From: Candidatus Micrarchaeota archaeon
GTDB taxonomy: Archaea > Micrarchaeota > Micrarchaeia > Anstonellales > Bilamarchaeaceae
Direction of reading: 5' to 3'
Length of the DNA: 18,439 nt
Assembly: GCA_040754495.1 (NCBI GenBank)
Contig: JBFMCO010000016.1
Location: 1 to 18,439, forward strand
Under the pieces are notes generated by a model that worked only from the letters and a program-made list of their open reading frames with translations, did not search any database and had not been told where the DNA came from. This document shows, in pieces, positions 1 to 10,898 of this stretch; position 1 is the stretch's first letter; each line of letters starts with the position of its first letter. The position numbers and the translations under genes were made by a program.

Positions 1-1989
1 AGGGAGGCCACGCCGAGGCCGACAGTCTCCGTGGAATGGCTCGACCAGCAGCTGCGGGATTCGAGGCGGGATGACCGGCGCGCGAGGGCCGCGGCCACCA
101 CGCTGCACGCTAACAGCAGGTATGTCGAGCAGTTCCTCGACCCCGGGGCGCAGAGGGGCCTCGAGAGGACGGACAACCAGAAGAACACGACAATCGCTGT
201 CTTCAACGCGCTCTACCAGATTCCGGCTTTCAGGCTCTACCTTTCGTCCGTCGCGGCGCAGCAGCAGGCGCTGCCGGAGGCCCAGAGGTCGTTCCCAGAG
301 TTCCTTGCCCTGCAGACGTTCCTGGCCGAGCCGGGCCGGGGCGAGACGCTCAGCAGCGGGGCCGAGGATGCCATAATCAGGGGCGCGGACATGTACATCC
401 GCTACTTCCTCTTCAGCTTCGTCGCCGGCAACGCGGATTACGCGCGCTTCCGCGAGGAGCTGAACCAGCTCCCGACCGGAAGATGGAGGGTGGAGAACGT
501 ACAGGGCGCCATGACGTTCCAGCCGCAGGGCGGGCGGGCGCCGAGCGAGGCGGACAGGATAGCTCTCATGAGGCTTTACCTGACTGGCACGATGGACGCC
601 GACACAATCACCGTCGCTTCCCTTTACCTGAGGAGGTGGACGCTCGAGCATCCGGAGCGCGGGCGCGGAAGGAGGCAGGACCAGATAGACGCGTGGCAGG
701 CTCCGGAGATAATAACCCCGACCGAAGTCGCGGCCCAGGCTGTAGTGCCCCGCGTCGGCGTCATCGGGGACTCGCTCACCGCGGGGGGCAGGTACGCGAC
801 AACGCTGAGGACTTACCTGCGCGAGGGCAACCCGGATGCGGCGGTCGACCATTACGGCGTGGTGGGCGAATCGCTGCGCGCGATATCCGGAAGGTTCGAG
901 CGCGACATCCTCAGCCACGCCCCGGCTTACAACGCTGTCGTGATACAGGGCGGCATCAACGGAATAACCGGCACTTCGGTCATCGAGGCCGAGCGCTATT
1001 TCACGCAGATGATAAGCGCCGCGAGGGCAAGGGGCATGAAGGTCATTCTCCTCACCCTTCACCCATGGGCCGGCGCCTCCAGCTCGGACGCTACGGCGCA
1101 GAGCAGGACGGCAGAGATTAACACCTGGCTGCGCTCGCAGGCCCAGGCAGACGGGAGCGTCGTCGTGGTGGACGTCTCCTCCCTCGGCGAGGGCAACCCG
1201 CCGAGGCTCAGGCAGATATACGACAGCGGAGACCACCTGCACCCGAATGCGGACGGCAGGGACCTCATAGCGAGGCTGATATCGCAGGCCGCCTTCGGCC
1301 GCCAGCCCACTGCGACGCAGGCGCGCAGCGAGCTGCAGGATTATGCTGACCGGAACTGGAGGAACCTCTCGACCGAGCTCTCGAATGCCGCGAGGCAGGG
1401 AAGGCCTGAGGCCATAATCACCCTCTCGCGCAACCTGCCGCAGGGGCAGGCGTCGCTCGAAGCGGCGCTCACGGCGCTCAACCGCGATGACATCGCGAGG
1501 GCGTACGACCGCGTCTTCAACGACTACTTCCACCGGGACAGGGACTTCCTTGACTTCTGCCGCACGAGGACCGAATACCAGAGCATAGCGCTGGAATCGG
1601 TCACCATGAGCGCCCAGCGCACGCCTGCCGAGAGGAGGGCCGTCGTGCGCGCGATGCAGGAGTTCATCAACTACCAGGCGGGCCGCTCCGGCGACGAATA
1701 TTACACAAGGCTCAGGGACGACCTCAGGCTCCTTTACCGGGACGGCCTGAGGCTGACCGGCGACAGCCAGCAGAGCCTGCACATAGACGGCATGGAGGAC
1801 GTCCGCACGCTCGCGGCCATCGGCGTCTACAGCTGGAGGAAGGCCAACCGCAGCGCCCAGGTCGGCGCATGGGGCCAGTCGCTCGGCATCGGCACGCAGC
1901 GCACGGAGGCTCAGCCTGCGCAGCCAGCCCAGCCGACACAGCCTGAGCCGCGGCCGGGCGAGCAGAGGAGGCGCGTCATACACCCGTAG
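1..1989 (+). CDS. SGNH/GDSL-family hydrolase domain protein with flanking peptidoglycan-binding-like motifs (5'-truncated by the window edge)
   Basis: Frame is open from base 1 (REATPRPTVSVEWL...), so the GTG at 31 is probably internal. SGNH blocks are visible: I GDSLT (766-774), II YGVVG, III QGGING, V DHLHPN (1231-1242). Stop TAG at 1987-1989. Confidence 0.85.
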   Translation, partial: REATPRPTVSVEWLDQQLRDSRRDDRRARAAATTLHANSRYVEQFLDPGAQRGLERTDNQKNTTIAVFNALYQIPAFRLYLSSVAAQQQALPEAQRSFPEFLALQTFLAEPGRGETLSSGAEDAIIRGADMYIRYFLFSFVAGNADYARFREELNQLPTGRWRVENVQGAMTFQPQGGRAPSEADRIALMRLYLTGTMDADTITVASLYLRRWTLEHPERGRGRRQDQIDAWQAPEIITPTEVAAQAVVPRVGVIGDSLTAGGRYATTLRTYLREGNPDAAVDHYGVVGESLRAISGRFERDILSHAPAYNAVVIQGGINGITGTSVIEAERYFTQMISAARARGMKVILLTLHPWAGASSSDATAQSRTAEINTWLRSQAQADGSVVVVDVSSLGEGNPPRLRQIYDSGDHLHPNADGRDLIARLISQAAFGRQPTATQARSELQDYADRNWRNLSTELSNAARQGRPEAIITLSRNLPQGQASLEAALTALNRDDIARAYDRVFNDYFHRDRDFLDFCRTRTEYQSIALESVTMSAQRTPAERRAVVRAMQEFINYQAGRSGDEYYTRLRDDLRLLYRDGLRLTGDSQQSLHIDGMEDVRTLAAIGVYSWRKANRSAQVGAWGQSLGIGTQRTEAQPAQPAQPTQPEPRPGEQRRRVIHP

Positions 1990-1998
1990 CCGCAAACG

Positions 1999-2033
1999 GC
2001 TCCCGGCCTCCGGCAGGCGGTTCCGGGTTTCCG
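1999..2033 (+). repeat. Degenerate heptamer array (5 units) downstream of the SGNH gene
   Basis: gctcccg-gcctccg-gcaggcg-gttccgg-gtttccg, 7-nt period, starting 10 nt after the stop codon. Confidence 0.55.
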
Positions 2034-2134
2034 ATTGGAGCGCGTAGCGCTCCAATGGACCAGCGAACGGTTCGCCGTTGTCATGAACGTCGCTACGTTC
2101 ATGAGCATGCTCGTGGTCGGTTCGCCGACCACGA
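2034..2134 (+). other. Cluster of perfect inverted repeats; candidate structured RNA or cruciform element
   Basis: 10-bp stems at 2034-2056 (loop GTA), 2081-2104 (loop CGCT) and 2111-2134 (loop TTCG), plus a 5-bp stem at 2066-2079 (loop TTCG). Confidence 0.6.
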
Positions 2135-2378
2135 CATCGCCCGGTCGTGTTTTGGGTTCTGCGTTTTCCCAGCGGTTTTCCCCCTTTTTATGCATTTTTA
2201 CTTTCCGGAATGCCAGGCCTTCCGATTTTTCCAAAGGTAGTCCGGAATTTCAGGTATTTTCAACAGTTTTTACATACACGAAAATCCGCTTTGTGTGACA
2301 ATCCTTTTTATTCCTTTCCCGGCATATTATTGACGTTAAGCACAGCTCAGCTAAACACAGGCATCCACCGGAATCGGG

Positions 2379-2406
2379 CCCAAAACCGAAAACCGGAAAC
2401 AGGGAA
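2379..2406. repeat. Heptamer array (4 units)
   Basis: cccaaaa-ccgaaaa-ccggaaa-cagggaa. Confidence 0.65.
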
Positions 2407-2411
2407 CGCTC

Positions 2412-5400
2412 ATGGCCGGACCGAGACTCAGCAGGGAGGACGGGAATGCAGAGGGAGGCCGACCGCTCGCGGAGGAGAGGCGCAGGAAGTTCCGCAAATT
2501 CTTTTTGTCCGATTTCACAGCCGCCTCGCTTGCCGGGGTACTGACGTTCTTCAGCGGAAGCAATTTAAACAATCTCGGACCTAATGTTGCTATGTCACAA
2601 CCGGGCCAACCGAGGCAGCGCGGAAGGGCGACAGTAGAGGCGGAGGAGGTCAGGAACCTGGAGCAGTACGCGGTCGATGCGGCCGCTGCCTACCGCCAGT
2701 ACATAACCGGTGCAGACCCTGCCCAGCGCGAGCGCTTCTGGAGCATATACAACAGGTCTTTCGGCGGCGCGACGCTCCATGACAACACCGTCTTCATGAG
2801 CAAGCTGTTCACCGAGCTCGACCGCGTCGGCCAGGACCCCGGCGTCCGCCCGCTGCTTGAGGCGTTCACATCCGACCGGGGCAGGCTCTTCGGTTTCCTC
2901 TGGTCCAACCCGGTGCATTTCACCGACTTTATAGACACCATATTCAACATCAGGAGCGCTCTCGAGAGGGGCGCGGCGACCGATGCGGCCGTAGCGAGGC
3001 TCGCACAGCAATACCGGGACCTCGGCAGCAGGCCGGTCCGGGCAGACACCCAGCTCGCCCGCGTCCGGACCTCGGTGCAGGGCGGCATGGGCATAGAGGA
3101 CGCTGCGCGCGCCGAGCTCGAGCGGACTGGCCGCGAGGATGCGACGGCAAGATACGGGGAGAACCTGACGAGGGAGGTCGGGGCCCTCATGCCCCGCGAG
3201 CAGGCCCGCAGGTGCGCCTCGGCCCTGCGCGATTTCATGCTCACCGGAAACGACGCGAAGAGGCAGGAGTTCAGGCGCATCTTCGACGCCAACACCTCCT
3301 CGGCCTTCATGGACGCATTCACGGTGGAATTCCGCACGAGGATTTACCAGGACACCGCATCCGGCCTCGCCGCGGTAGCGCAGGCCTACAACACCAGGCA
3401 CAGCGGGACAGAGCCGAGCGAATTCGCCACTATGGTGGCCAACCTCTACCGCGCGGCCCAGACCGGCACCCCGGAGGAAATCGAGCGGATGAGGACGGCG
3501 GAAGGGACGAACGTCGTGGACCCGCTCCTCGCGATAGTGGCAAGGGGCATGGCCGGGCGGGCCATCACGCTGCTGCGCGACGTGCTCGAGACCGGGAGCG
3601 GCTCATCGCGCGACGCGTTCGTGCAGATACTGAACGGCCATCTGGCGGTCGTGGTGAACAACGCCGTGCAGATGCCGACAGTCGAGAACAACGACGTTTT
3701 CTGGAATGAATTCACAAGGCGCTATTCGCAGGAAATCGCGCAGAACAGCACGCTTGCGACCCTTGTCCGCGGATTCGGCAGGAACATACTCCCCATAGCG
3801 ATAAGGGACATATACACCGAGCTCTCGAGGGCGACCCCGGACACTGCGAGGCTGAATTCCGACTATGGCCCGGACCTGGTCAGGCTGGTGCAGTCGAACA
3901 TGGCGAGCCTCACGTGGATGATCCGGAGCGAGACCGAGCTCAACAACGAGATTCGGCGGAGGGCCGACGCGCAGGATGGCACCGCGGTCGCGCTCCGCGG
4001 AGTCCGCATGACCGTTCCGAGGGGACGGGCTCTCTCAGACAGCTTTGTGACGCTCGTGGGACTCCGCACGAGGAGGGCGGCCATAGAATCGCCCGACGTG
4101 CTCCAGATACTCGAGCAGAATTACGACCAGCTCTCCTGGCTCTCAGGCTCCGCGGCCGACGTCCAGAGGGAGCTGGACAGGAGGGCGCGCGCAAGGCCTC
4201 CGGACGCGGTCGCGGTCCAGCTCCGCGCGCGCTTCCCGCAGAACGCGGGCCAGTCGCTCTCGCGGGCATACGGAGAGCTTCGCGCGGTCAGGGAAGGGCG
4301 GGCGCAGCTCGTGCAGAGATACGGCGAGGAATTCGTGTCCGTCGTAGAGCGCAACCTCGACAACCTTTACTGGGTGGTGCGGCCGGTGACGCAAATCGAG
4401 AGCGAGATGCAGTCCAGGCGCGACGAGGCGTTCCCCATCGCTGTCTATTCCACGGTAGGCTTCTCGCTAGGCGCGCTGGCAAACGGCATGCGCGACATAC
4501 TCGGCGAACTCGCAAGGAGCAGCCCGGACCGGGCGAGGCTCGAGAGGCGCTACGGCACGGAGCTTGTGCAGTTCGTGGAGCAGAACCGGAGCGCCCTCGG
4601 ATGGGTCACGAGCCAGGACCTGGGCACGGTCATGGACAGACTCCAGCAGCCCTCATCTGATGCCGTGACAAGGCAGCTCCAGACGAGATGGCTCTACAGC
4701 TACACGCCGGTGCAGCTCGTTTCCGCGATACAGAGGGCAAGAAGCGCAACAAGCAGGGGCGGGATAGCGCTTGCCGACGCAAGGGACGCGTACGGCGAGA
4801 CTGCGTTCATGTCTGCGGTGGCCACGCGACAGGCTGTCGCGACGCCCTCGCGCGGCCCGGAAGCCGTCGAGGCTAGAAGGGCCGAGATAGAGTCCAGAAG
4901 GCGGCAGTTCGAAAGGGACCTTGAGTCGCTCGAAGGCCAGATGAGGTATTCAATCCTTGAGCCGGCGCGCGTGGCGCTGCGCGAGCACATCCGCACATGG
5001 AGGGCCGAGAACGAGGCCATCCGCCTTGCCGCGCGCTCGTCGCAGGACCCGGCTGAGCTCGACGCCCTCGTCCAGAGGCAGATAGCCTTAAACAGCGTCA
5101 TGCTGTCGCCCGCAGACCTGAGGAAGTCGGTCGAGATGTCTTTTGCCATGATCCACCTGGCCGAGACCGGGGCGGACATGGGCCGCGGCCCGCTCATCGA
5201 AGGCGTCACATTCAGCGACATGGACATAGGCACACTGCGCAGGCTCCTCGAATGGTACAACGGCCTCGGAAGGACCGGCAAGCAGCAGGTCGTGGGGGAC
5301 ATAGTGGCCGCGGTCATGGGCCGCGCGGACCCCCAGCTCCACCGCTTCATAAGCAGGATGGACGAGCCGAATTTCTTCTCTTCGCTTGTCCGGGCCTACG

Positions 5401-8400
5401 GCGCGGCGCGGACGCGCGATGCCGGGGCGAGGCAGACCATGATCTCAATCTACGGCGAGGACTTCATGAGGGCCGTGGACGAGCAGGCACCGCACCTGCG
5501 CGTCCTTGAAAGCCCGACCGTGACGTACCGGGACCTCGAGCGCGGCGAGAACGCGCTTTTCGCGGCAATAGTCGCAAGGGTCACGCGCGCCATCACGAAC
5601 CCGAGCGGCACCGAGACGCGCGAGACCATGATAAGGCTCTTCGGGGACAGGTTCGTCCAGGTGGTGGAGGCAAACCGCCAGGCCCTTGCGCCGATGGCAT
5701 CTGCCACTGCCGACCTTGCGACGTTCCAGGGGCTGCCGGAGGCAGTGAGGCAGGCGATTACGCAGGCTTATCCGGAAGCGTACAACAAGAGCGTGAGGAG
5801 CATCATGCGCCTCTACCGCAGGCAGGACCAGTTCATGTTCATGGCCATGGTTTCGGTCTATTCAGTCATGAGAGCGAGGCCTGACCGCGGCGCTCCTGCA
5901 GAGCGCGTGCGCGAGTTCGATGCGCGCACCCAGGAGCTTTACCAGGCTTACGGGGAGCAGTTCGTGAGGCTGATTTCCGAGAACATGTCCCAGCTCGGGC
6001 TTCTCGAGAGCCCGACCGTGACTTCACGCGAGCTGAGCAGGGTCTCGGCAGACCTGCTTGAGAGGCTCAACCAGGCATACGAGACCGGGCCGGGCGCAGG
6101 CCGGGCCAACTTCATGCTGAACTTCACGAGGCTGGCAGAGAGGCTGCCGAGGGTTTACACGCAGCTGCGCAGCTCCCTGCTCTTCTCGAACGCCACCGAC
6201 CAGATGTCGGTCAACTTCGCGAACGTCGTGCAGCTCTACCGCCAGGAGTTCGGCTCGGACAACTACCTCTTCAACCAGTATCTCAACATAGATCTCCTGA
6301 GCAGGAGCCTCACGCGGCTTGCAAGGAGATACAACGTCGAGCTGCCGCCCTGGGCGGCAGACGGCTTGGACAGCCCGGAGGAGCTCTCGAGGTTCCTCGG
6401 GACAGAGGCCGGAAGGCGGCTGATAAGCGAGGGCAGGAGGTTCTACGAGGGCATAGAGACGCAATACCTGACCAACAGGGCAGAGCTTCCAGCCGATTCC
6501 GCGCTAAGGACGACAGGCGATTTCAGCGACTCGAATGTTGCCAGCCTTCGCAACGAGCTCTCCATACTGGACGCGCTCTACCTCGGCGTCGCGATGGAGA
6601 GGATAGGCGGCACGGATTCCGCGTTCTCACGGAGCGCCGCGACGGCGGTCATGAATTCCCTCCTCGTGATTTCGCACAGGGACCCGTATCTTGTCGGCCC
6701 CTACCTGCTGCAGGTTCTGCCGGCGATACTGTCAGTCGCGCAGGACGAGCGCACGCTGGTCGCCGGCATCGAGGCGTTCAACCAGATATTCACGCAGAGA
6801 TACGAGTCGGGCACGAGGGACATCGCCTACACCACTGCGCTGAACCGGCGCTATTTCCTCGAGGTGTTCGCCCGCATAGGGGAGCGCCTGCCGGAGGTGG
6901 TGAGCACCTACGACCACAGCAGGCTGGAAGACGAGCTGCGCCTCACTCCCGAGCCGAGGACCGACGAAGGGTATCTCAGCCCGCTTCTCTACAGGTACAG
7001 GCCCGGGTTCTGGCAGGGCGAGGGCCTTGAGCCCCTGCCGACGATGTACGGCCAGTACGGGGCGCCCATCAGGCTGCTGCCGCGGCCGTTCATGCCCACA
7101 AACCCGTTCCTTCCGGTGCCCGGAGGATTCAGGCTGGACTCCGGAGCGGCTGACTTATACAGCAGCATGTACGACCAGCTCAGGCCGCCAGCCGACAGGA
7201 TGTTCCGCCAGCGCGTGCCACCGAGGTTCAGGATAGGCGCGCTCGGGGCATCCACCATAATCCGGAGGATAAACCAGCTTTTCGGGCCCATGCCGGTTGA
7301 CTACAACGATTACTGGCTGAGCGGCACCGGTGAGGCCGGCGCGTTCTACGCGCACGAGGAGCGCGGCGCGACCACGCGTGACAGGGGAGGCGCGGCCGCG
7401 ACAGGGGCCGGAAGGACGATATCCGGAGGAGTCGCGGGCCAGGCAAGATACACAAGGGACGTCACCGAGACGACCTCGGGCGCCGCAGGCGGGGAGCAAA
7501 GGGCGACCACGCAGACCTCGGACATAGTGGACGTGCGCGGGACGGCCGTGAGGCTGCCTGCACCGATGTCAGGACCCGTGCCGCTGCCCCTCTTCGGCGT
7601 CATCCCATGGGACATGTTCGGCATGGGCGAGGGCGTGGGGATACACCGGGCGAGGCAGGAGTTCCATCACGAGAGCGCGGGGACCGAGGAGAGGGTCACC
7701 CCGCCCGGAGGGCCGACGACCGTCACCGAGACGCCGAGAAGCGGAAGGACACGTGGGCTCCTGGACACCTACCAGAGGATAGCGCGCGAATCCCAGACGG
7801 ACATGCTCCTCTTCGTCCAGGGCGAGCACGTCCCGGAGCTGCGCGGCGCTGCTCCGGCAGGCGGCGGCGAGGCCCCGGTGGCGCAGAGAGGGCAGGACAG
7901 GCTGAAAAGCAGGCTTTACTTCGTAACAAGGGAAGGGGACATCTACCAGCTCGCCTACGGGCTTGACACCCTGTCCCAGCTCTCGAACTACCTTTACGCG
8001 GGCGCGAACACCCAGCAGTGGCTGGCTTCGGTGCGCTCCGTCGGCAGGCAGATGCTGACAGGCGACGCGGCGGCCGGCGGCTTCGACGGCATGGCCGTCG
8101 GGTTCACGCTCCCGCGCAGCGGCGGGGACACGTTCTCGGCTCTCGCCTTCGGCCAGCTTGTGCGCAACATGCGCACGATGGACCCGGTGCATGCTGAGCA
8201 GGCCCTGGGCATGGCTGTCACGAATCTTCTCAACGACCGCCGCCAGCGCGACATATATGCGGCATTCTTCCGCGGCGCCGAGACCGTCACGGTCGACCAG
8301 GCGGACAGGACAAGAATCAGGGACCCGCGCTTCGCTGAAGGGACCGGCGAGGTCATGTGGAGGCGCGTGCGCATAGACCCGATGGCCTACCAGGCCGAAG

Positions 8401-10898
8401 TCCGCGCGGTCGGAGGATATCCGCTCACGGTAGGGGCGAGGGGAAGGGTGGAATGGAGGCCCAGCAGGTACCAGACCAACGCCCTCGGAATCACGGCGGC
8501 ATACAGCAACATAGACCTCCTGCGGGAGTTCAGGGCGGCCGATGCGCAGGCCGACCAGATGTACGGGAACATAAACACCATGCTCGTGAACCTCTACCAC
8601 TGGTCAGAGGACGAGGCCAGGGACACCGGTTACCTCATCTCGGGCAGCTATCTTTATGCACGCATGGAGGACTGGACCGTCAGGAACCCGGACGGCACCT
8701 ACACCACCACGCGGGCCGGCCCGGAGGGGACGCCTTCGGAGCACTTCGCGTCAGCCATGTTCATGTACTGGGCCCAGCGGCACGGCGTGCTGATGGGAGC
8801 GCAGAGGGTTCCGGGCTGGAGCAGGATTTACGAGAGGATAGACCGCGCCATGAGGGATATCCAGATGAACCCGGCCAACGAGGCCACCATCCTGCAGAAC
8901 CTTTCAACATCGCTCCGCGAGGACCTGAGGAGGGACATCTGGAGGTTCGCGCTCGCTTACGGATACGACGGCGAGCGCGTGAGGGTATACACGGTCGCGG
9001 GCGGCCAGTGGACCGGCGACGAGACCGCTTACGGCAACCTGTACGGGCTGTTCCTCTTCGGAAGGCCCACGCGGGGCTTTGTGGACATACTCGGACATGC
9101 ATACGGCTACTCGCCGCTCACAATCAGCGAGGACACGTCGGCGACAGGAGGGTTCCAGGTCCGGAGAGGCAGGTATTCGCCGTACGTGGACCTTTATACC
9201 GGATTCGGAGTGGTGGACTGGCCGAGCGTCAGCCTGAACAGGTACCAGAGGGAGGTCACGGTAACGCCGAGGCCGGACCTGCCCGGGGCGGTGCGCGACG
9301 TCTACCGCGAGTTCGGCGGCACGCGCAACCGCGCGAGGCTGGTGCGCCTGTATGGTGAGACGCTTGTCAGGATAATGGAGGAAAGCAGGGACAGCATGAA
9401 CTGGATGGTAAGGCCGGCAGCCGAAGTCCGGAGCGAACTCCAGACCCGCCTCGAGGCCGAGGACCCGGTCGTGATGTCCATGATGAACCTCCGCAGGGGC
9501 GTCGAAGGCGGCCGCCAGGCTGTGCGCGAATCCGATGCCCAGGCGGTAAGGGACATCTATCTCGAGCTCCGCAAGGCCAACCCGGACAGGGAGCGGCTCG
9601 AGCGCGAGTACTCGAGGGACCTCATAGACCTCGTGGAGCGCAACAGCGTGGACCTTGAATGGATAATGCTCCCGCCTGCGCGCATGAGCGCCGAATTCAC
9701 GCGCAGGGCCCAGCGCCAGGGCACTGTCGAGGCCAGGATTGCGAACGAGGTGCAGCTCACCGCGATTTCGACGCAGGACCAGCTCACGGGCCCGGAGCTG
9801 AAAAGGCTGTTCGAGCAGAACATGATTGACGTGATTGTCGGCGCGACCAACGCGGAATCGCGCGCAGGCCTCAGCGCAGACAGGTACGACGTGCTCCTCG
9901 GCAGCCACCTATCCAGCCCGGAGGGGCAGAGGGCGAGGAGCGGCACGTACTACGTGCTGCACAGCCCAGTTGCGGAGAGGGCAGAGGCACGCGGCTCGCT
10001 CGTCATCGGGGACGAAACCGACCTCGACGAGTGGATGAGGAACGGCCACGAAATCGGCCGGGGCATCAGCCGCGTCGAAATCGGCCGCGAGGGAAGCGAC
10101 TACAAGCTCACCTTCTCCGGAGACAGGAGGCTCCGTGCCTTCACCGCCGAGAGGGTGGTCGGCGGCATCTCGATACCGCTGCGCGGCTCGGATTACGACA
10201 ACTACGTGCCGGGCGGCAACTGGACCGTCGGCGGCCTGATGCACATCCTGCAGGACCACAGGATGGACCTCCTCGGCGGAGCCTTGTACGGAACGCGCCA
10301 GTTCGGGAACGAGCGCTGGGACCAATGGACCGTGACGCTCTCCGGGCGCCTCCAGGGCACGAACACCGCCACCGTCAGCGAGAACTGGTACGGCTACGTG
10401 TTCTTCAATTCAACCAACAAGCAGATCGTGTTCGCGAGCAACGACGTTTTCAACAACTCGGATGAGATGCGCACGGTCTGCCAGACGATTGGCGGCGCCC
10501 AGTGCACCAACCTCAGCGAGCTTTCGCGCATGACCGGAGGCGCCGGAATCACCTGGGCGAGGGCGGACGTCATCACCGGCGACAGGCTGAACCTGCACCT
10601 GTTCTTCGAGGGCGGCGCAGAGACGTACAGGAGGTTCTCGCAGCCGGCCGAGGGCCAGACGCCTGACCGGGACCGCCAGTTCGTCTTCAGGGCCGGGGCG
10701 GGGCTGGAATACATCCGGCAGAGCCAGCAGAGCGTTGTGCCGACCATCTACTCGCTCCAGCTCGGGGCGCAGAGCGGCACGTGGCCCCTGCTCCCGGGCG
10801 AAGTAACGAGGCCCGAGATGCTCAACCCGTGGGCGACCTCCATAGAGTCAGGCGTGCCTGGCTGGTCGCTCATGCTCTATGGCAGGGTACAGTGGTAG
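2412..10898 (+). CDS. Giant hypothetical protein (2828 aa from ATG 2412; 2768 aa from ATG 2592): helical repeat region, Pro-rich linker, C-terminal amphipathic beta-strand (beta-barrel-like) region
   Basis: 8.5-kb uninterrupted ORF with strong G/C third-position bias, internal protein repeats and a terminal aromatic residue (RVQW-stop). The start is ambiguous between 2412 and 2592. Confidence 0.92.
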   Translation: MAGPRLSREDGNAEGGRPLAEERRRKFRKFFLSDFTAASLAGVLTFFSGSNLNNLGPNVAMSQPGQPRQRGRATVEAEEVRNLEQYAVDAAAAYRQYITGADPAQRERFWSIYNRSFGGATLHDNTVFMSKLFTELDRVGQDPGVRPLLEAFTSDRGRLFGFLWSNPVHFTDFIDTIFNIRSALERGAATDAAVARLAQQYRDLGSRPVRADTQLARVRTSVQGGMGIEDAARAELERTGREDATARYGENLTREVGALMPREQARRCASALRDFMLTGNDAKRQEFRRIFDANTSSAFMDAFTVEFRTRIYQDTASGLAAVAQAYNTRHSGTEPSEFATMVANLYRAAQTGTPEEIERMRTAEGTNVVDPLLAIVARGMAGRAITLLRDVLETGSGSSRDAFVQILNGHLAVVVNNAVQMPTVENNDVFWNEFTRRYSQEIAQNSTLATLVRGFGRNILPIAIRDIYTELSRATPDTARLNSDYGPDLVRLVQSNMASLTWMIRSETELNNEIRRRADAQDGTAVALRGVRMTVPRGRALSDSFVTLVGLRTRRAAIESPDVLQILEQNYDQLSWLSGSAADVQRELDRRARARPPDAVAVQLRARFPQNAGQSLSRAYGELRAVREGRAQLVQRYGEEFVSVVERNLDNLYWVVRPVTQIESEMQSRRDEAFPIAVYSTVGFSLGALANGMRDILGELARSSPDRARLERRYGTELVQFVEQNRSALGWVTSQDLGTVMDRLQQPSSDAVTRQLQTRWLYSYTPVQLVSAIQRARSATSRGGIALADARDAYGETAFMSAVATRQAVATPSRGPEAVEARRAEIESRRRQFERDLESLEGQMRYSILEPARVALREHIRTWRAENEAIRLAARSSQDPAELDALVQRQIALNSVMLSPADLRKSVEMSFAMIHLAETGADMGRGPLIEGVTFSDMDIGTLRRLLEWYNGLGRTGKQQVVGDIVAAVMGRADPQLHRFISRMDEPNFFSSLVRAYGAARTRDAGARQTMISIYGEDFMRAVDEQAPHLRVLESPTVTYRDLERGENALFAAIVARVTRAITNPSGTETRETMIRLFGDRFVQVVEANRQALAPMASATADLATFQGLPEAVRQAITQAYPEAYNKSVRSIMRLYRRQDQFMFMAMVSVYSVMRARPDRGAPAERVREFDARTQELYQAYGEQFVRLISENMSQLGLLESPTVTSRELSRVSADLLERLNQAYETGPGAGRANFMLNFTRLAERLPRVYTQLRSSLLFSNATDQMSVNFANVVQLYRQEFGSDNYLFNQYLNIDLLSRSLTRLARRYNVELPPWAADGLDSPEELSRFLGTEAGRRLISEGRRFYEGIETQYLTNRAELPADSALRTTGDFSDSNVASLRNELSILDALYLGVAMERIGGTDSAFSRSAATAVMNSLLVISHRDPYLVGPYLLQVLPAILSVAQDERTLVAGIEAFNQIFTQRYESGTRDIAYTTALNRRYFLEVFARIGERLPEVVSTYDHSRLEDELRLTPEPRTDEGYLSPLLYRYRPGFWQGEGLEPLPTMYGQYGAPIRLLPRPFMPTNPFLPVPGGFRLDSGAADLYSSMYDQLRPPADRMFRQRVPPRFRIGALGASTIIRRINQLFGPMPVDYNDYWLSGTGEAGAFYAHEERGATTRDRGGAAATGAGRTISGGVAGQARYTRDVTETTSGAAGGEQRATTQTSDIVDVRGTAVRLPAPMSGPVPLPLFGVIPWDMFGMGEGVGIHRARQEFHHESAGTEERVTPPGGPTTVTETPRSGRTRGLLDTYQRIARESQTDMLLFVQGEHVPELRGAAPAGGGEAPVAQRGQDRLKSRLYFVTREGDIYQLAYGLDTLSQLSNYLYAGANTQQWLASVRSVGRQMLTGDAAAGGFDGMAVGFTLPRSGGDTFSALAFGQLVRNMRTMDPVHAEQALGMAVTNLLNDRRQRDIYAAFFRGAETVTVDQADRTRIRDPRFAEGTGEVMWRRVRIDPMAYQAEVRAVGGYPLTVGARGRVEWRPSRYQTNALGITAAYSNIDLLREFRAADAQADQMYGNINTMLVNLYHWSEDEARDTGYLISGSYLYARMEDWTVRNPDGTYTTTRAGPEGTPSEHFASAMFMYWAQRHGVLMGAQRVPGWSRIYERIDRAMRDIQMNPANEATILQNLSTSLREDLRRDIWRFALAYGYDGERVRVYTVAGGQWTGDETAYGNLYGLFLFGRPTRGFVDILGHAYGYSPLTISEDTSATGGFQVRRGRYSPYVDLYTGFGVVDWPSVSLNRYQREVTVTPRPDLPGAVRDVYREFGGTRNRARLVRLYGETLVRIMEESRDSMNWMVRPAAEVRSELQTRLEAEDPVVMSMMNLRRGVEGGRQAVRESDAQAVRDIYLELRKANPDRERLEREYSRDLIDLVERNSVDLEWIMLPPARMSAEFTRRAQRQGTVEARIANEVQLTAISTQDQLTGPELKRLFEQNMIDVIVGATNAESRAGLSADRYDVLLGSHLSSPEGQRARSGTYYVLHSPVAERAEARGSLVIGDETDLDEWMRNGHEIGRGISRVEIGREGSDYKLTFSGDRRLRAFTAERVVGGISIPLRGSDYDNYVPGGNWTVGGLMHILQDHRMDLLGGALYGTRQFGNERWDQWTVTLSGRLQGTNTATVSENWYGYVFFNSTNKQIVFASNDVFNNSDEMRTVCQTIGGAQCTNLSELSRMTGGAGITWARADVITGDRLNLHLFFEGGAETYRRFSQPAEGQTPDRDRQFVFRAGAGLEYIRQSQQSVVPTIYSLQLGAQSGTWPLLPGEVTRPEMLNPWATSIESGVPGWSLMLYGRVQW
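2554..2570 (+). promoter_or_regulatory. Putative BRE+TATA promoter for the giant gene (leaderless start at ATG 2592)
   Basis: gcggaagcaaTTTAAAC. The TATA starts 28 nt upstream of ATG 2592, and the element closely resembles gcggaacgaTTTAAAA, which has the same spacing before ATG 12180. Confidence 0.55.

Follow-up and report, generated by a model that had tools for sequence, protein, structure and literature searches.

A lysine-purged block of giant proteins around an SGNH esterase protein in Micrarchaeota, a candidate device for contact with other cells

Introduction

Why should an archaeon of the phylum Micrarchaeota keep an SGNH esterase gene next to a gene for a protein of 2,828 amino acids (aa), with hardly a lysine (Lys) in either product? 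The two genes open the window analysed here, which covers bases 1-18,439 of contig C16 (JBFMCO010000016.1) of a Candidatus Micrarchaeota genome (G000; 1.63 Mb, 72 contigs, 80% complete). Gene 1 encodes the esterase protein and gene 2 the giant, called giant A in what follows. We find that they are the right-hand part of a five-gene block, that three of its proteins have lost lysine together and that giant A carries a predicted export signal and a rear part resembling, according to its model, bacterial outer-membrane pores. We give an even chance to the proposal that this Micrarchaeota-specific block builds a cell-surface or trans-envelope device for contact with another cell.

To our knowledge, almost nothing of the machinery by which DPANN archaea attach to partners and take up material has been described, though host-dependent cells must do both. 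The SPEARE-type giants of Nanohaloarchaeota, very large lineage-specific proteins that are presumably surface-exposed, have been proposed as contact proteins of host-dependent DPANN.

Results

An SGNH gene and a giant gene linked in a five-gene block

The part of the window that concerns us is organised as follows.

1..1989, forward strand: gene 1, SGNH esterase protein, the middle protein of the block; 662 aa are present, truncated at the 5' end by the contig start (full-length relatives have 780-890 aa)
1990..2411, forward strand: spacer of 423 nucleotides, with hairpins at 2034-2146, T-rich runs at about 2149-2200 and an AT-rich, TATA-like stretch at about 2300-2335
2412..10898, forward strand: gene 2, giant A, 2,828 aa, predicted to be exported, of a family confined to Micrarchaeota

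The window begins where its contig begins, and since the frame of gene 1 is already open at base 1, the 5' end of this gene is missing. Gene 1 has 0.5% Lys, 11.6% arginine (Arg) and 12.4% alanine (Ala), and giant A 0.4%, 11.4% and 10.2%. The housekeeping genes downstream of giant A, which encode aTrm56 (trm56), phosphoglucomutase (PGM), PRPP synthetase, DJ-1/PfpI and geranylgeranyl reductase (GGR), have 3.7-9.4% Lys. A previous sequence-only reading of this DNA had described two adjacent, Arg/Ala-rich and almost Lys-free genes, and both the open reading frames (ORFs) and their composition relative to the flanking genes bear it out. As gene 2 has 29 near-full-length homologues and gene 1 about 23 (the latter 44-66% identical), both are real genes and not chance ORFs. 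Every named homologue of the two proteins comes from Micrarchaeota, so the assignment to a DPANN archaeon, also made from the sequence alone, is right; aTrm56 and GGR in the window agree with it.

The complete block consists of a protein of ~1,370 aa, a Lys-rich helper of ~100 aa, a second giant (giant B), the SGNH esterase protein and giant A. Genes in this order are present in at least six genomes, which represent two genera, and their place in the chromosome is conserved; the block occupies about 27 kb of the 1.6-Mb genome. In G000, the giant B gene begins on contig C49 and is cut by the end of that contig, so that the assembly has split the block between C49 and C16. In G157, G050 and G118 giant A directly follows the esterase gene, and in G144 it is inverted and 3.4 kb away. 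Metagenomes add nine more esterase/giant-A pairs, with both members on contigs equal in length. Upstream of the esterase gene stands giant B, unrelated to giant A, with about 2,830-2,900 aa in G157 and G050 and cut by the contig end in G118. G169 carries a version of the block that is 22-26% identical and has the same order of giant B, middle protein and giant A. In the second genus, G134 has a helper, a giant B of 3,384 aa, a 737-aa protein with Lipase_GDSL_2 (E 2.9e-12) and a giant-A-like protein. BLAST found no link between this 737-aa protein and gene 1, and in our view nothing supports a place for an SGNH enzyme between the giants more strongly than the G134 block. The linkage of the two window genes thus stands, down to this diverged version. 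As to the earlier idea that the pair forms a module, the genes are indeed linked and not independently distributed, and they turn out to be only the right-hand part of a larger block.

Giant B has about 2,800-3,400 aa and two to three strongly hydrophobic, predicted transmembrane helices near its middle. Pfam, NCBIfam and PHROGs returned nothing for giant B or the 1,376-aa protein of G000, Pfam returned nothing for the G000 helper, and the language-model (Atlas) features of giant B were uninformative (at most 0.80). A region of ~550 aa is shared between giant B and a 6,841-aa ORF on contig C22 of G000. Genome G157 has two tandem giant B paralogues on its contig C2 (L050 8665-17361; L065 1-8328). 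Their identity is 50% over the full length and 87% in the last ~720 aa, which suggests recent duplication or gene conversion of that part.

The other two companions are encoded on contig C49 of G000. The helper (L066, 5582-5890) is a Lys-rich protein of 102 aa directly upstream of giant B, and is kept in the same place in G157, G109, G169, G050 and G134 (37-50% identity). The 1,376-aa protein (L066, 1260-5390), of normal Lys content, is encoded between ftsY and the helper. It shares 38% identity with the corresponding protein of G157, in which the last ~140 aa are similar to the C-terminus of giant B (34% identity).

The block is chromosomal, diverges fast and has lost lysine in three proteins at once

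The trm56/PGM/GGR neighbourhood is the same in six genomes, including G180, G050, G118, G144 and G109. With this shared neighbourhood, and with no tRNA, integrase or viral signal, the block is chromosomal and vertically inherited. An origin from a mobile element or virus was considered and rejected: the site is fixed, there is no tRNA in the window, and PHROGs gave lipase-type matches to the SGNH domain only. At this constant site the block proteins have diverged rapidly, identity being 32-43% for giant A and 30-42% for the esterase protein, compared with 68-78% for PGM and 64-66% for GGR.

Lysine has been lost jointly from giant A, the esterase protein and giant B. The three hold 0.0-0.7% Lys in G000, G157, G169 and G134, and 4.7-10% in G050, G118 and G144. 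Lysine is kept in the ~1,370-aa protein (4.3-4.9%) and in the helper, which in G134 reaches 16.5% and adjoins proteins with 0.0-0.1%. At alignment columns with Lys in the normal members, the purged members have mostly Arg (53%), and a few lysines are retained. Mutational bias was rejected as the cause of the loss, as G169, with 39-42% GC in its housekeeping genes, shows the purge and G050 and G118, both with 58-59% GC, do not. Since the joint loss spares the helper and the ~1,370-aa protein, we think that the three purged proteins share a compartment or fate unlike that of their two cytoplasmic companions.

Selected lysine deserts have been described in toxins that enter other cells and in other proteins exposed to lysine-directed tagging (review PMC13696103). 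The block resembles them in the near-total, selected loss of Lys, in its replacement by Arg and in the confinement of the loss to proteins likely to leave the cytoplasm. It differs in that the purge spans whole proteins of 800-3,400 aa, and in an archaeon.

Giant A: a predicted exported protein with a helical front and a beta-rich rear

Giant A can be divided as follows.

2412..2597, forward strand: predicted Sec-type signal peptide, aa 1-62, with basic n-region RRRKFRKF and hydrophobic core, then NLNNLGPNVAMS followed, after the cleavage site, by QP
2598..6900, forward strand: predicted all-alpha region, aa 63 to about 1495, with five or six repeat copies
6901..7328, forward strand: Pro-rich linker, about aa 1497-1639, with a predicted local distance difference test (pLDDT) score below 50 at model residues 1060-1171
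7329..9278, forward strand: beta region part 1, aa 1640-2289, predicted long antiparallel strands; the core common to relatives of 1,385-1,770 aa in other genera
9279..9851, forward strand: helical insert in the beta region, aa 2290-2480, with two more copies of the ~70-aa repeat, pLDDT 80-90
9852..10895, forward strand: beta region part 2, aa 2481-2828, with a predicted amphipathic last strand and a terminal aromatic residue (GWSLMLYGRVQW)

We interpret the N-terminus as a Sec signal peptide that ends in a cleavage site of the AxA type. Its pattern of basic residues, hydrophobic core and NINNLGxNxAMA before the QP is kept in relatives at 40-65% identity, and is found in frame upstream of database entries that were annotated from MAQP. 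The low cysteine content of giant A (0.1%) also agrees with export. Neither Pfam nor NCBIfam nor PHROGs finds a match in giant A, and a search of PDB sequences with the family profile gave chance-level matches only (E >= 0.13). Together with the lack of a specific fold assignment (below), these searches leave giant A unassigned to any known cytoplasmic family; such an assignment would have counted against the sequence-only reading.

AlphaFold2 models of aa 440-1639, with 27 homologues aligned, are all helix up to about aa 1495, at a mean pLDDT of 80.1. A helical repeat of ~70 aa, with the motif AIRDIYxEL..PD..RL...YG..LV..VE.N...L.W, occurs here at about aa 460, 612, 689, 989 and 1052 and probably 1171. 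This makes seven copies by pattern in the whole protein, with a probable eighth near aa 1171. The repeat was found by its motif, self-BLAST at E 0.01 having given no internal repeat pairs. Foldseek assigned no specific fold to the helical region (best E 0.13; vinculin, TAL-effector and dynein rows at E > 0.1). VIA retrieved a generic three-helix bundle at aa 814-915 with Z up to 9.7, which is below the meaningful level for helical folds and thus not specific. The Pro-rich linker, despite its poor model, is among the most conserved sequence of the family, with many nearly invariant columns.

For aa 1640-2828 (~1,190 aa), AlphaFold2 predicts mostly long antiparallel strands (mean pLDDT 63.5; predicted template modelling score, pTM, 0.37). 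A helical region of about 1,500 aa joined to an amphipathic beta region had been proposed from the sequence alone. Both regions are recovered in the models, with two corrections: the boundary lies near aa 1500-1640, and the beta part is interrupted. Strand alternation is clear at aa 2177-2186, 2563-2576, 2724-2769 and 2818-2827 and absent from other strands. Nearly all complete homologues end in W or F, and the C-terminus of the family reads GWxxMLYGxxxW.

In an exhaustive comparison of the beta model with 48,161 PDB chains, 48 of the 50 best matches were bacterial or organellar outer-membrane barrels. The top matches were CdiB (Z 12.1, root-mean-square deviation, rmsd, 13.7 Å), Cir (11.9) and OmpG (11.5), followed by autotransporter beta-domains (about 10); NanC matched at Z 9.4 with an rmsd of 5.0 Å. 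The best local barrel matches fall at aa 2121-2650, across parts 1 and 2. In a second comparison they were KdgM at Z 10.1 and rmsd 4.8 Å (137/171 aligned) and NanC (Z 9.3, rmsd 4.8 Å), and OmpF also matched locally (rmsd 4.3 Å, 151 aligned). Foldseek agreed weakly with outer-membrane barrels and also returned weak rows to LPD-3 and ApoB100. Language-model features pointed to outer-membrane protein families at 0.85-0.88, which we take as a lead only. No membership in a known outer-membrane protein family was detected by Pfam, by NCBIfam or by a profile search of 1.84 billion proteins. With moderate confidence, the rear ~1,190 aa of giant A resemble bacterial outer-membrane pores; closure of the strands into a barrel and insertion into a membrane would be a further step from this model.

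The family is narrow. A profile of the beta core, run against 1.84 billion representative proteins, found 67 relatives only, and all named ones are from Micrarchaeota. Giant A matches occur in 14 of the 201 genomes of the phylum and in 7 of the 11 of the genus, and several genomes that are 90-94% complete gave none. Shorter relatives (1,385-1,770 aa) from other genera share aa ~1400-2828 without the helical insert, have signal peptides and end in aromatic residues (YAGWKW, YIGGSF, TYTTTF, YFKLTF). As they share the beta core, we consider it the oldest part of giant A. In the literature on Micrarchaeota giant proteins and archaeal beta-barrels we found no description of this family.

The esterase protein: an SGNH domain between two private flanks

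The three parts of the gene 1 product are listed below.

1..735, forward strand: N-flank domain, aa 1-245, without a Pfam or PDB sequence match
757..1278, forward strand: SGNH/GDSL hydrolase domain, aa 253-426, with Ser258 (GDS), Asn320, Asp411 and His414 intact
1288..1986, forward strand: C-flank domain, then a Pro/Gln-rich linker and the C-terminal peptide QRRRVIHP, conserved in 22 homologues

Pfam PF13472 (Lipase_GDSL_2) matches aa 254-420 with 72.4 bits against a cut-off of 32.9 (E 8.9e-20). We scored the SGNH blocks I (GDS, nucleophile Ser), III (Asn) and V (DxxH, Asp/His) in 22 sequences: G256, S258, D411 and H414 are invariant, and D257, G318 and N320 nearly so. The intact esterase catalytic set described in the sequence-only reading is therefore confirmed. 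Lipase_GDSL_2 is also found in the counterparts from G157, G050 and G134. Gene 1 carries a domain of the SGNH/GDSL family, by its sequence, and its product is predicted to be an esterase. The profile of the 22-sequence family matched solved SGNH hydrolases among the PDB sequences (4ppy, 4iyj, 9kr0) at profile positions 372-568, that is, in the SGNH part only. A second claim, of wall-binding-like motifs, was not supported: in the flanks Pfam detects neither peptidoglycan-binding domains nor any other binding family at E <= 1, and the precomputed Pfam annotation of the listed homologues contains none either.

The domain has all the conserved blocks of known SGNH/GDSL esterases (4ppy, 4iyj, 9kr0, 7tog; acetyl-xylan esterase 4oap; PAF acetylhydrolase 1es9). 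Unlike them, it is set between two unique flanks of ~250 aa each, with Pro-rich linkers and an RRRVIxP end, in a nearly Lys-free protein that has no signal peptide and is always encoded between two giant genes. Full-length relatives start with MAxVxLxGNxLVV and end with a Pro-rich linker and the conserved RRRVIxP peptide, and the flanks occur in this block context only. The N-flank is the portion kept in the middle genes without an SGNH domain; it aligns by hhalign to the G169 middle protein (probability 65%, E 6e-5) and is linked by BLAST to the 336-aa middle protein of G109. No similarity was found by BLAST between the esterase protein and giant A.

A minus-strand frame of 685 aa (14.9% Arg, 1.0% Lys) lies antisense to gene 1 at positions 1-2055. 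It was rejected as a gene, since it is the plus strand that encodes the Pfam domain and matches all homologues, and is most likely a shadow ORF of a GC-rich coding strand.

Variants of the block

In G109 a different cassette (contig C10, L063/L064) occupies the same site between GGR and trm56/PGM. It comprises two proteins of ~1,700 aa that take the place of giant A and have giant-A-like N-termini, a 336-aa middle protein without an SGNH domain and a giant-B-like protein of 1,819 aa. The giant A orthologue of G118 (contig C46, L051 10365-18952) is split by a single TAA into ORFs of 1,890 and 973 aa, which could reflect a pseudogene, a sequencing error or a true split. Downstream of the block in G134 (contig C12, L067 34-5772) there is a protein of 1,912 aa with 0.5% Lys, a signal peptide and an aromatic C-terminus ending in CVFEWEF. 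By their sequences, the halves of giant A may be separate genes in the genus of G134.

Discussion

A proposed device for contact with another cell

Taken together, the most likely reading is that the block encodes a device at the surface of the cell or across its envelope. Giant A would be made with its Sec signal peptide and leave the cytoplasm. Its long helical part would probably act as a stalk or scaffold, and its porin-like rear could be inserted in, or lie against, a lipid layer beyond the cytoplasmic membrane, either in the archaeon's own outer layer or in a partner cell. The esterase protein, as the conserved partner of giant A, would deacylate a surface polymer or a lipid, most likely by taking off acetyl groups. 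Giant B, anchored in the membrane, would join the two in a device that contacts another cell, and the three proteins would work where lysine is a liability. We infer the localisation of the block, its substrate and its role in host contact, and so also the terms used for the pair in the sequence-only reading, which had proposed attachment or penetration by way of a pore or tether.

A stronger version of this proposal seems improbable to us. There, giant A would be a true outer-membrane-type barrel in a second membrane, which could be an outer membrane of the archaeon itself or belong to a partner cell. It would form the outer part of a trans-envelope device with giant B as inner part and the esterase as head, and lysine would have been purged against lysine-directed attack, for which tagging, cross-linking and proteolysis are candidates. 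One possibility for insertion is that the machinery of a Gram-negative partner recognises the aromatic C-terminus.

Several points weigh against a contact device. The evidence is computational throughout, and most of the genomes compared belong to one genus and so are not independent. For the esterase protein and giant B, the lysine pattern is the only ground for assuming export, as signal peptides are absent from giant B and from full-length relatives of the esterase protein, and the giant-A-like gene of G134 has no room for one. The middle gene of G169 and that of G109 lack the SGNH domain (in G109, any Pfam family), and the other block genes are not near the short giant-A relatives of other genera. 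In the spacer, where several of the hairpins at 2034-2146 are perfect and match no Rfam family, terminator-like and promoter-like features suggest separate transcription of giant A, which probably has its own promoter. The beta region brings further difficulties. Whole-range barrel alignments have rmsd values of 10-15 Å on a model of moderate confidence. Both faces are polar in the first hairpins (aa 1654-1791), and elsewhere even the hydrophobic side of the strands reaches a hydrophobic fraction of only about 0.55-0.8. In G000, Omp85/BamA (PF01103) was not found, control genomes being matched, and neither were the autotransporter (PF03797) and OMP_b-brl (PF13505) families; since this genome is 80% complete, absence of Omp85 is not provable.

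Alternative explanations

The features of the beta region just mentioned could mean that it is a surface or soluble structure, such as an adhesin, a fibre or a lipid-binding groove, and not a membrane barrel at all. We consider this possible, if on the unlikely side. The barrel matches may reflect no more than long antiparallel hairpins, as the moderate model and the high whole-range rmsd allow, and the weak Foldseek rows to LPD-3 and ApoB100, giants of the lipid-transfer or beta-sheet type, point the same way, as do the polar hairpins, the modest hydrophobic fraction elsewhere and the failure to find insertion machinery. Yet independent searches yield almost only outer-membrane barrels, the local fits to KdgM and OmpF are acceptable, and the amphipathic last strand with its terminal W or F is kept throughout the family. 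If the region does contact a lipid layer, this layer may belong to the archaeon itself, giant A being a structural pore or tether of its outer layer, with helical stalk and barrel in the manner of OmpM or SlpA of diderm bacteria, and the block serving to maintain its own envelope. A passage in Klingl 2014 (PMC4243693), citing Comolli 2009, describes ARMAN cells, a group that includes Micrarchaeota, as having an inner and an outer membrane that enclose a periplasm. The conserved chromosomal site would suit such a role, and so would the core-only relatives, which in several other genera have a signal peptide and an aromatic C-terminus without the partner genes. We nevertheless think this unlikely: the family is spread patchily through phylum and genus, with nearly complete genomes devoid of it; one would hardly expect a core part of the envelope to diverge so fast or, as in G109, to have its whole cassette replaced; closely related species have either purged lysine or kept it, with nothing in between; and G000 yielded no machinery for inserting barrels.

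A delivery system would account for the lysine pattern in another way, with giant A as translocon in an outer membrane or a foreign one. Giant B and the esterase protein would then be cargo or effectors, passed on with the aid of the small chaperone-like helper, much as in two-partner secretion or in injection systems with their translocator/chaperone pairs. The purge is confined to the three proteins that would be exported, as in the lysine deserts of toxins (PMC13696103), the best structural match is CdiB/TpsB (Z 12.1), the small Lys-rich helper always lies directly upstream of giant B, and the esterase would be a plausible effector among fast-diverging genes. Against this stand the lack of POTRA, TPS or any other secretion-system family in the three proteins, the transmembrane helices of giant B, which make it look anchored, and the fact that CdiB does not rise above other barrels (Z 10-12 for many, rmsd > 13 Å); no toxin/immunity genes were seen. 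We therefore find a delivery system quite doubtful. That the esterase and giant genes are neighbours through kinship alone, with no functional link, is very unlikely in our view. The syntenic genomes are mostly of one genus, the promoters are probably separate, and the SGNH domain is dispensable in two variants. But the linkage outlasts divergence to 30-43% identity and the inversion in G144, and extends to a second genus, whose SGNH protein has diverged on its own; the esterase flanks occur nowhere else; and Lys content switches jointly in three proteins. It is above all the block of the second genus and the joint lysine switch that disfavour mere common descent, and we retain the contact device as our preferred explanation.

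Comparison with known systems

Structural matches of giant A (Z 9-12) are to type Va autotransporters and outer-membrane barrels (NalP 1uyo, BrkA 3qq2, AIDA-I 4mee, EspP, CdiB/TpsB 6wil, KdgM 4pr7, NanC 2wjr). Like autotransporters, giant A has a Sec signal, a very large non-barrel part and a C-terminal antiparallel beta region whose last strand ends in W or F. Unlike them, its passenger is all-helical and not a beta-helix, its ~1,190-aa beta region contains a 190-aa helical insert, and the protein is archaeal, without detected Omp85/BamA or membership by sequence in an outer-membrane family, barrel and lipid-facing belt being predictions only. Two-partner secretion combines a TpsB protein (POTRA and ShlB-type barrel) with a TpsA protein (TPS domain and beta-helix), and Pfam finds no such families in giant A, giant B or the esterase protein.

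A long helical stalk with a large C-terminal barrel links envelope layers in the OmpM and SlpA proteins of diderm Firmicutes and Deinococcus. Giant A differs from them in having no SLH domain, and no sequence or fold match to them was retrieved. With respect to the SPEARE-type giants, giant A has no detectable protease, nuclease or adhesion domain and no homology outside Micrarchaeota, and it is part of a fixed block of several genes, in which an esterase and a porin-like region are combined.

Such a block is unexpected in an archaeon. It would combine an exported, predicted pore-like protein for which no known insertion machinery was found, an esterase fixed between giants, and an all-or-none removal of lysine that spares the cytoplasmic helpers. 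A real barrel would be relevant to the question of whether certain archaea possess true outer membranes or pierce the membranes of their hosts. In either case the block supplies concrete proteins to localise in co-cultures or enrichments, and the lysine pattern could serve as a marker, readable from sequence, for the exported or host-exposed proteome of these organisms.

Further giant proteins in the genome

Many other giant ORFs, of 2,500-6,800 aa, are present on contigs C42, C57, C15, C67 and C22 of G000. Some of them are nearly Lys-free, such as one of 6,147 aa with 0.31% Lys on C42 and one of 3,928 aa with 0.53% Lys on C57. Lys-poor giant ORFs also occur on C15 and C67.

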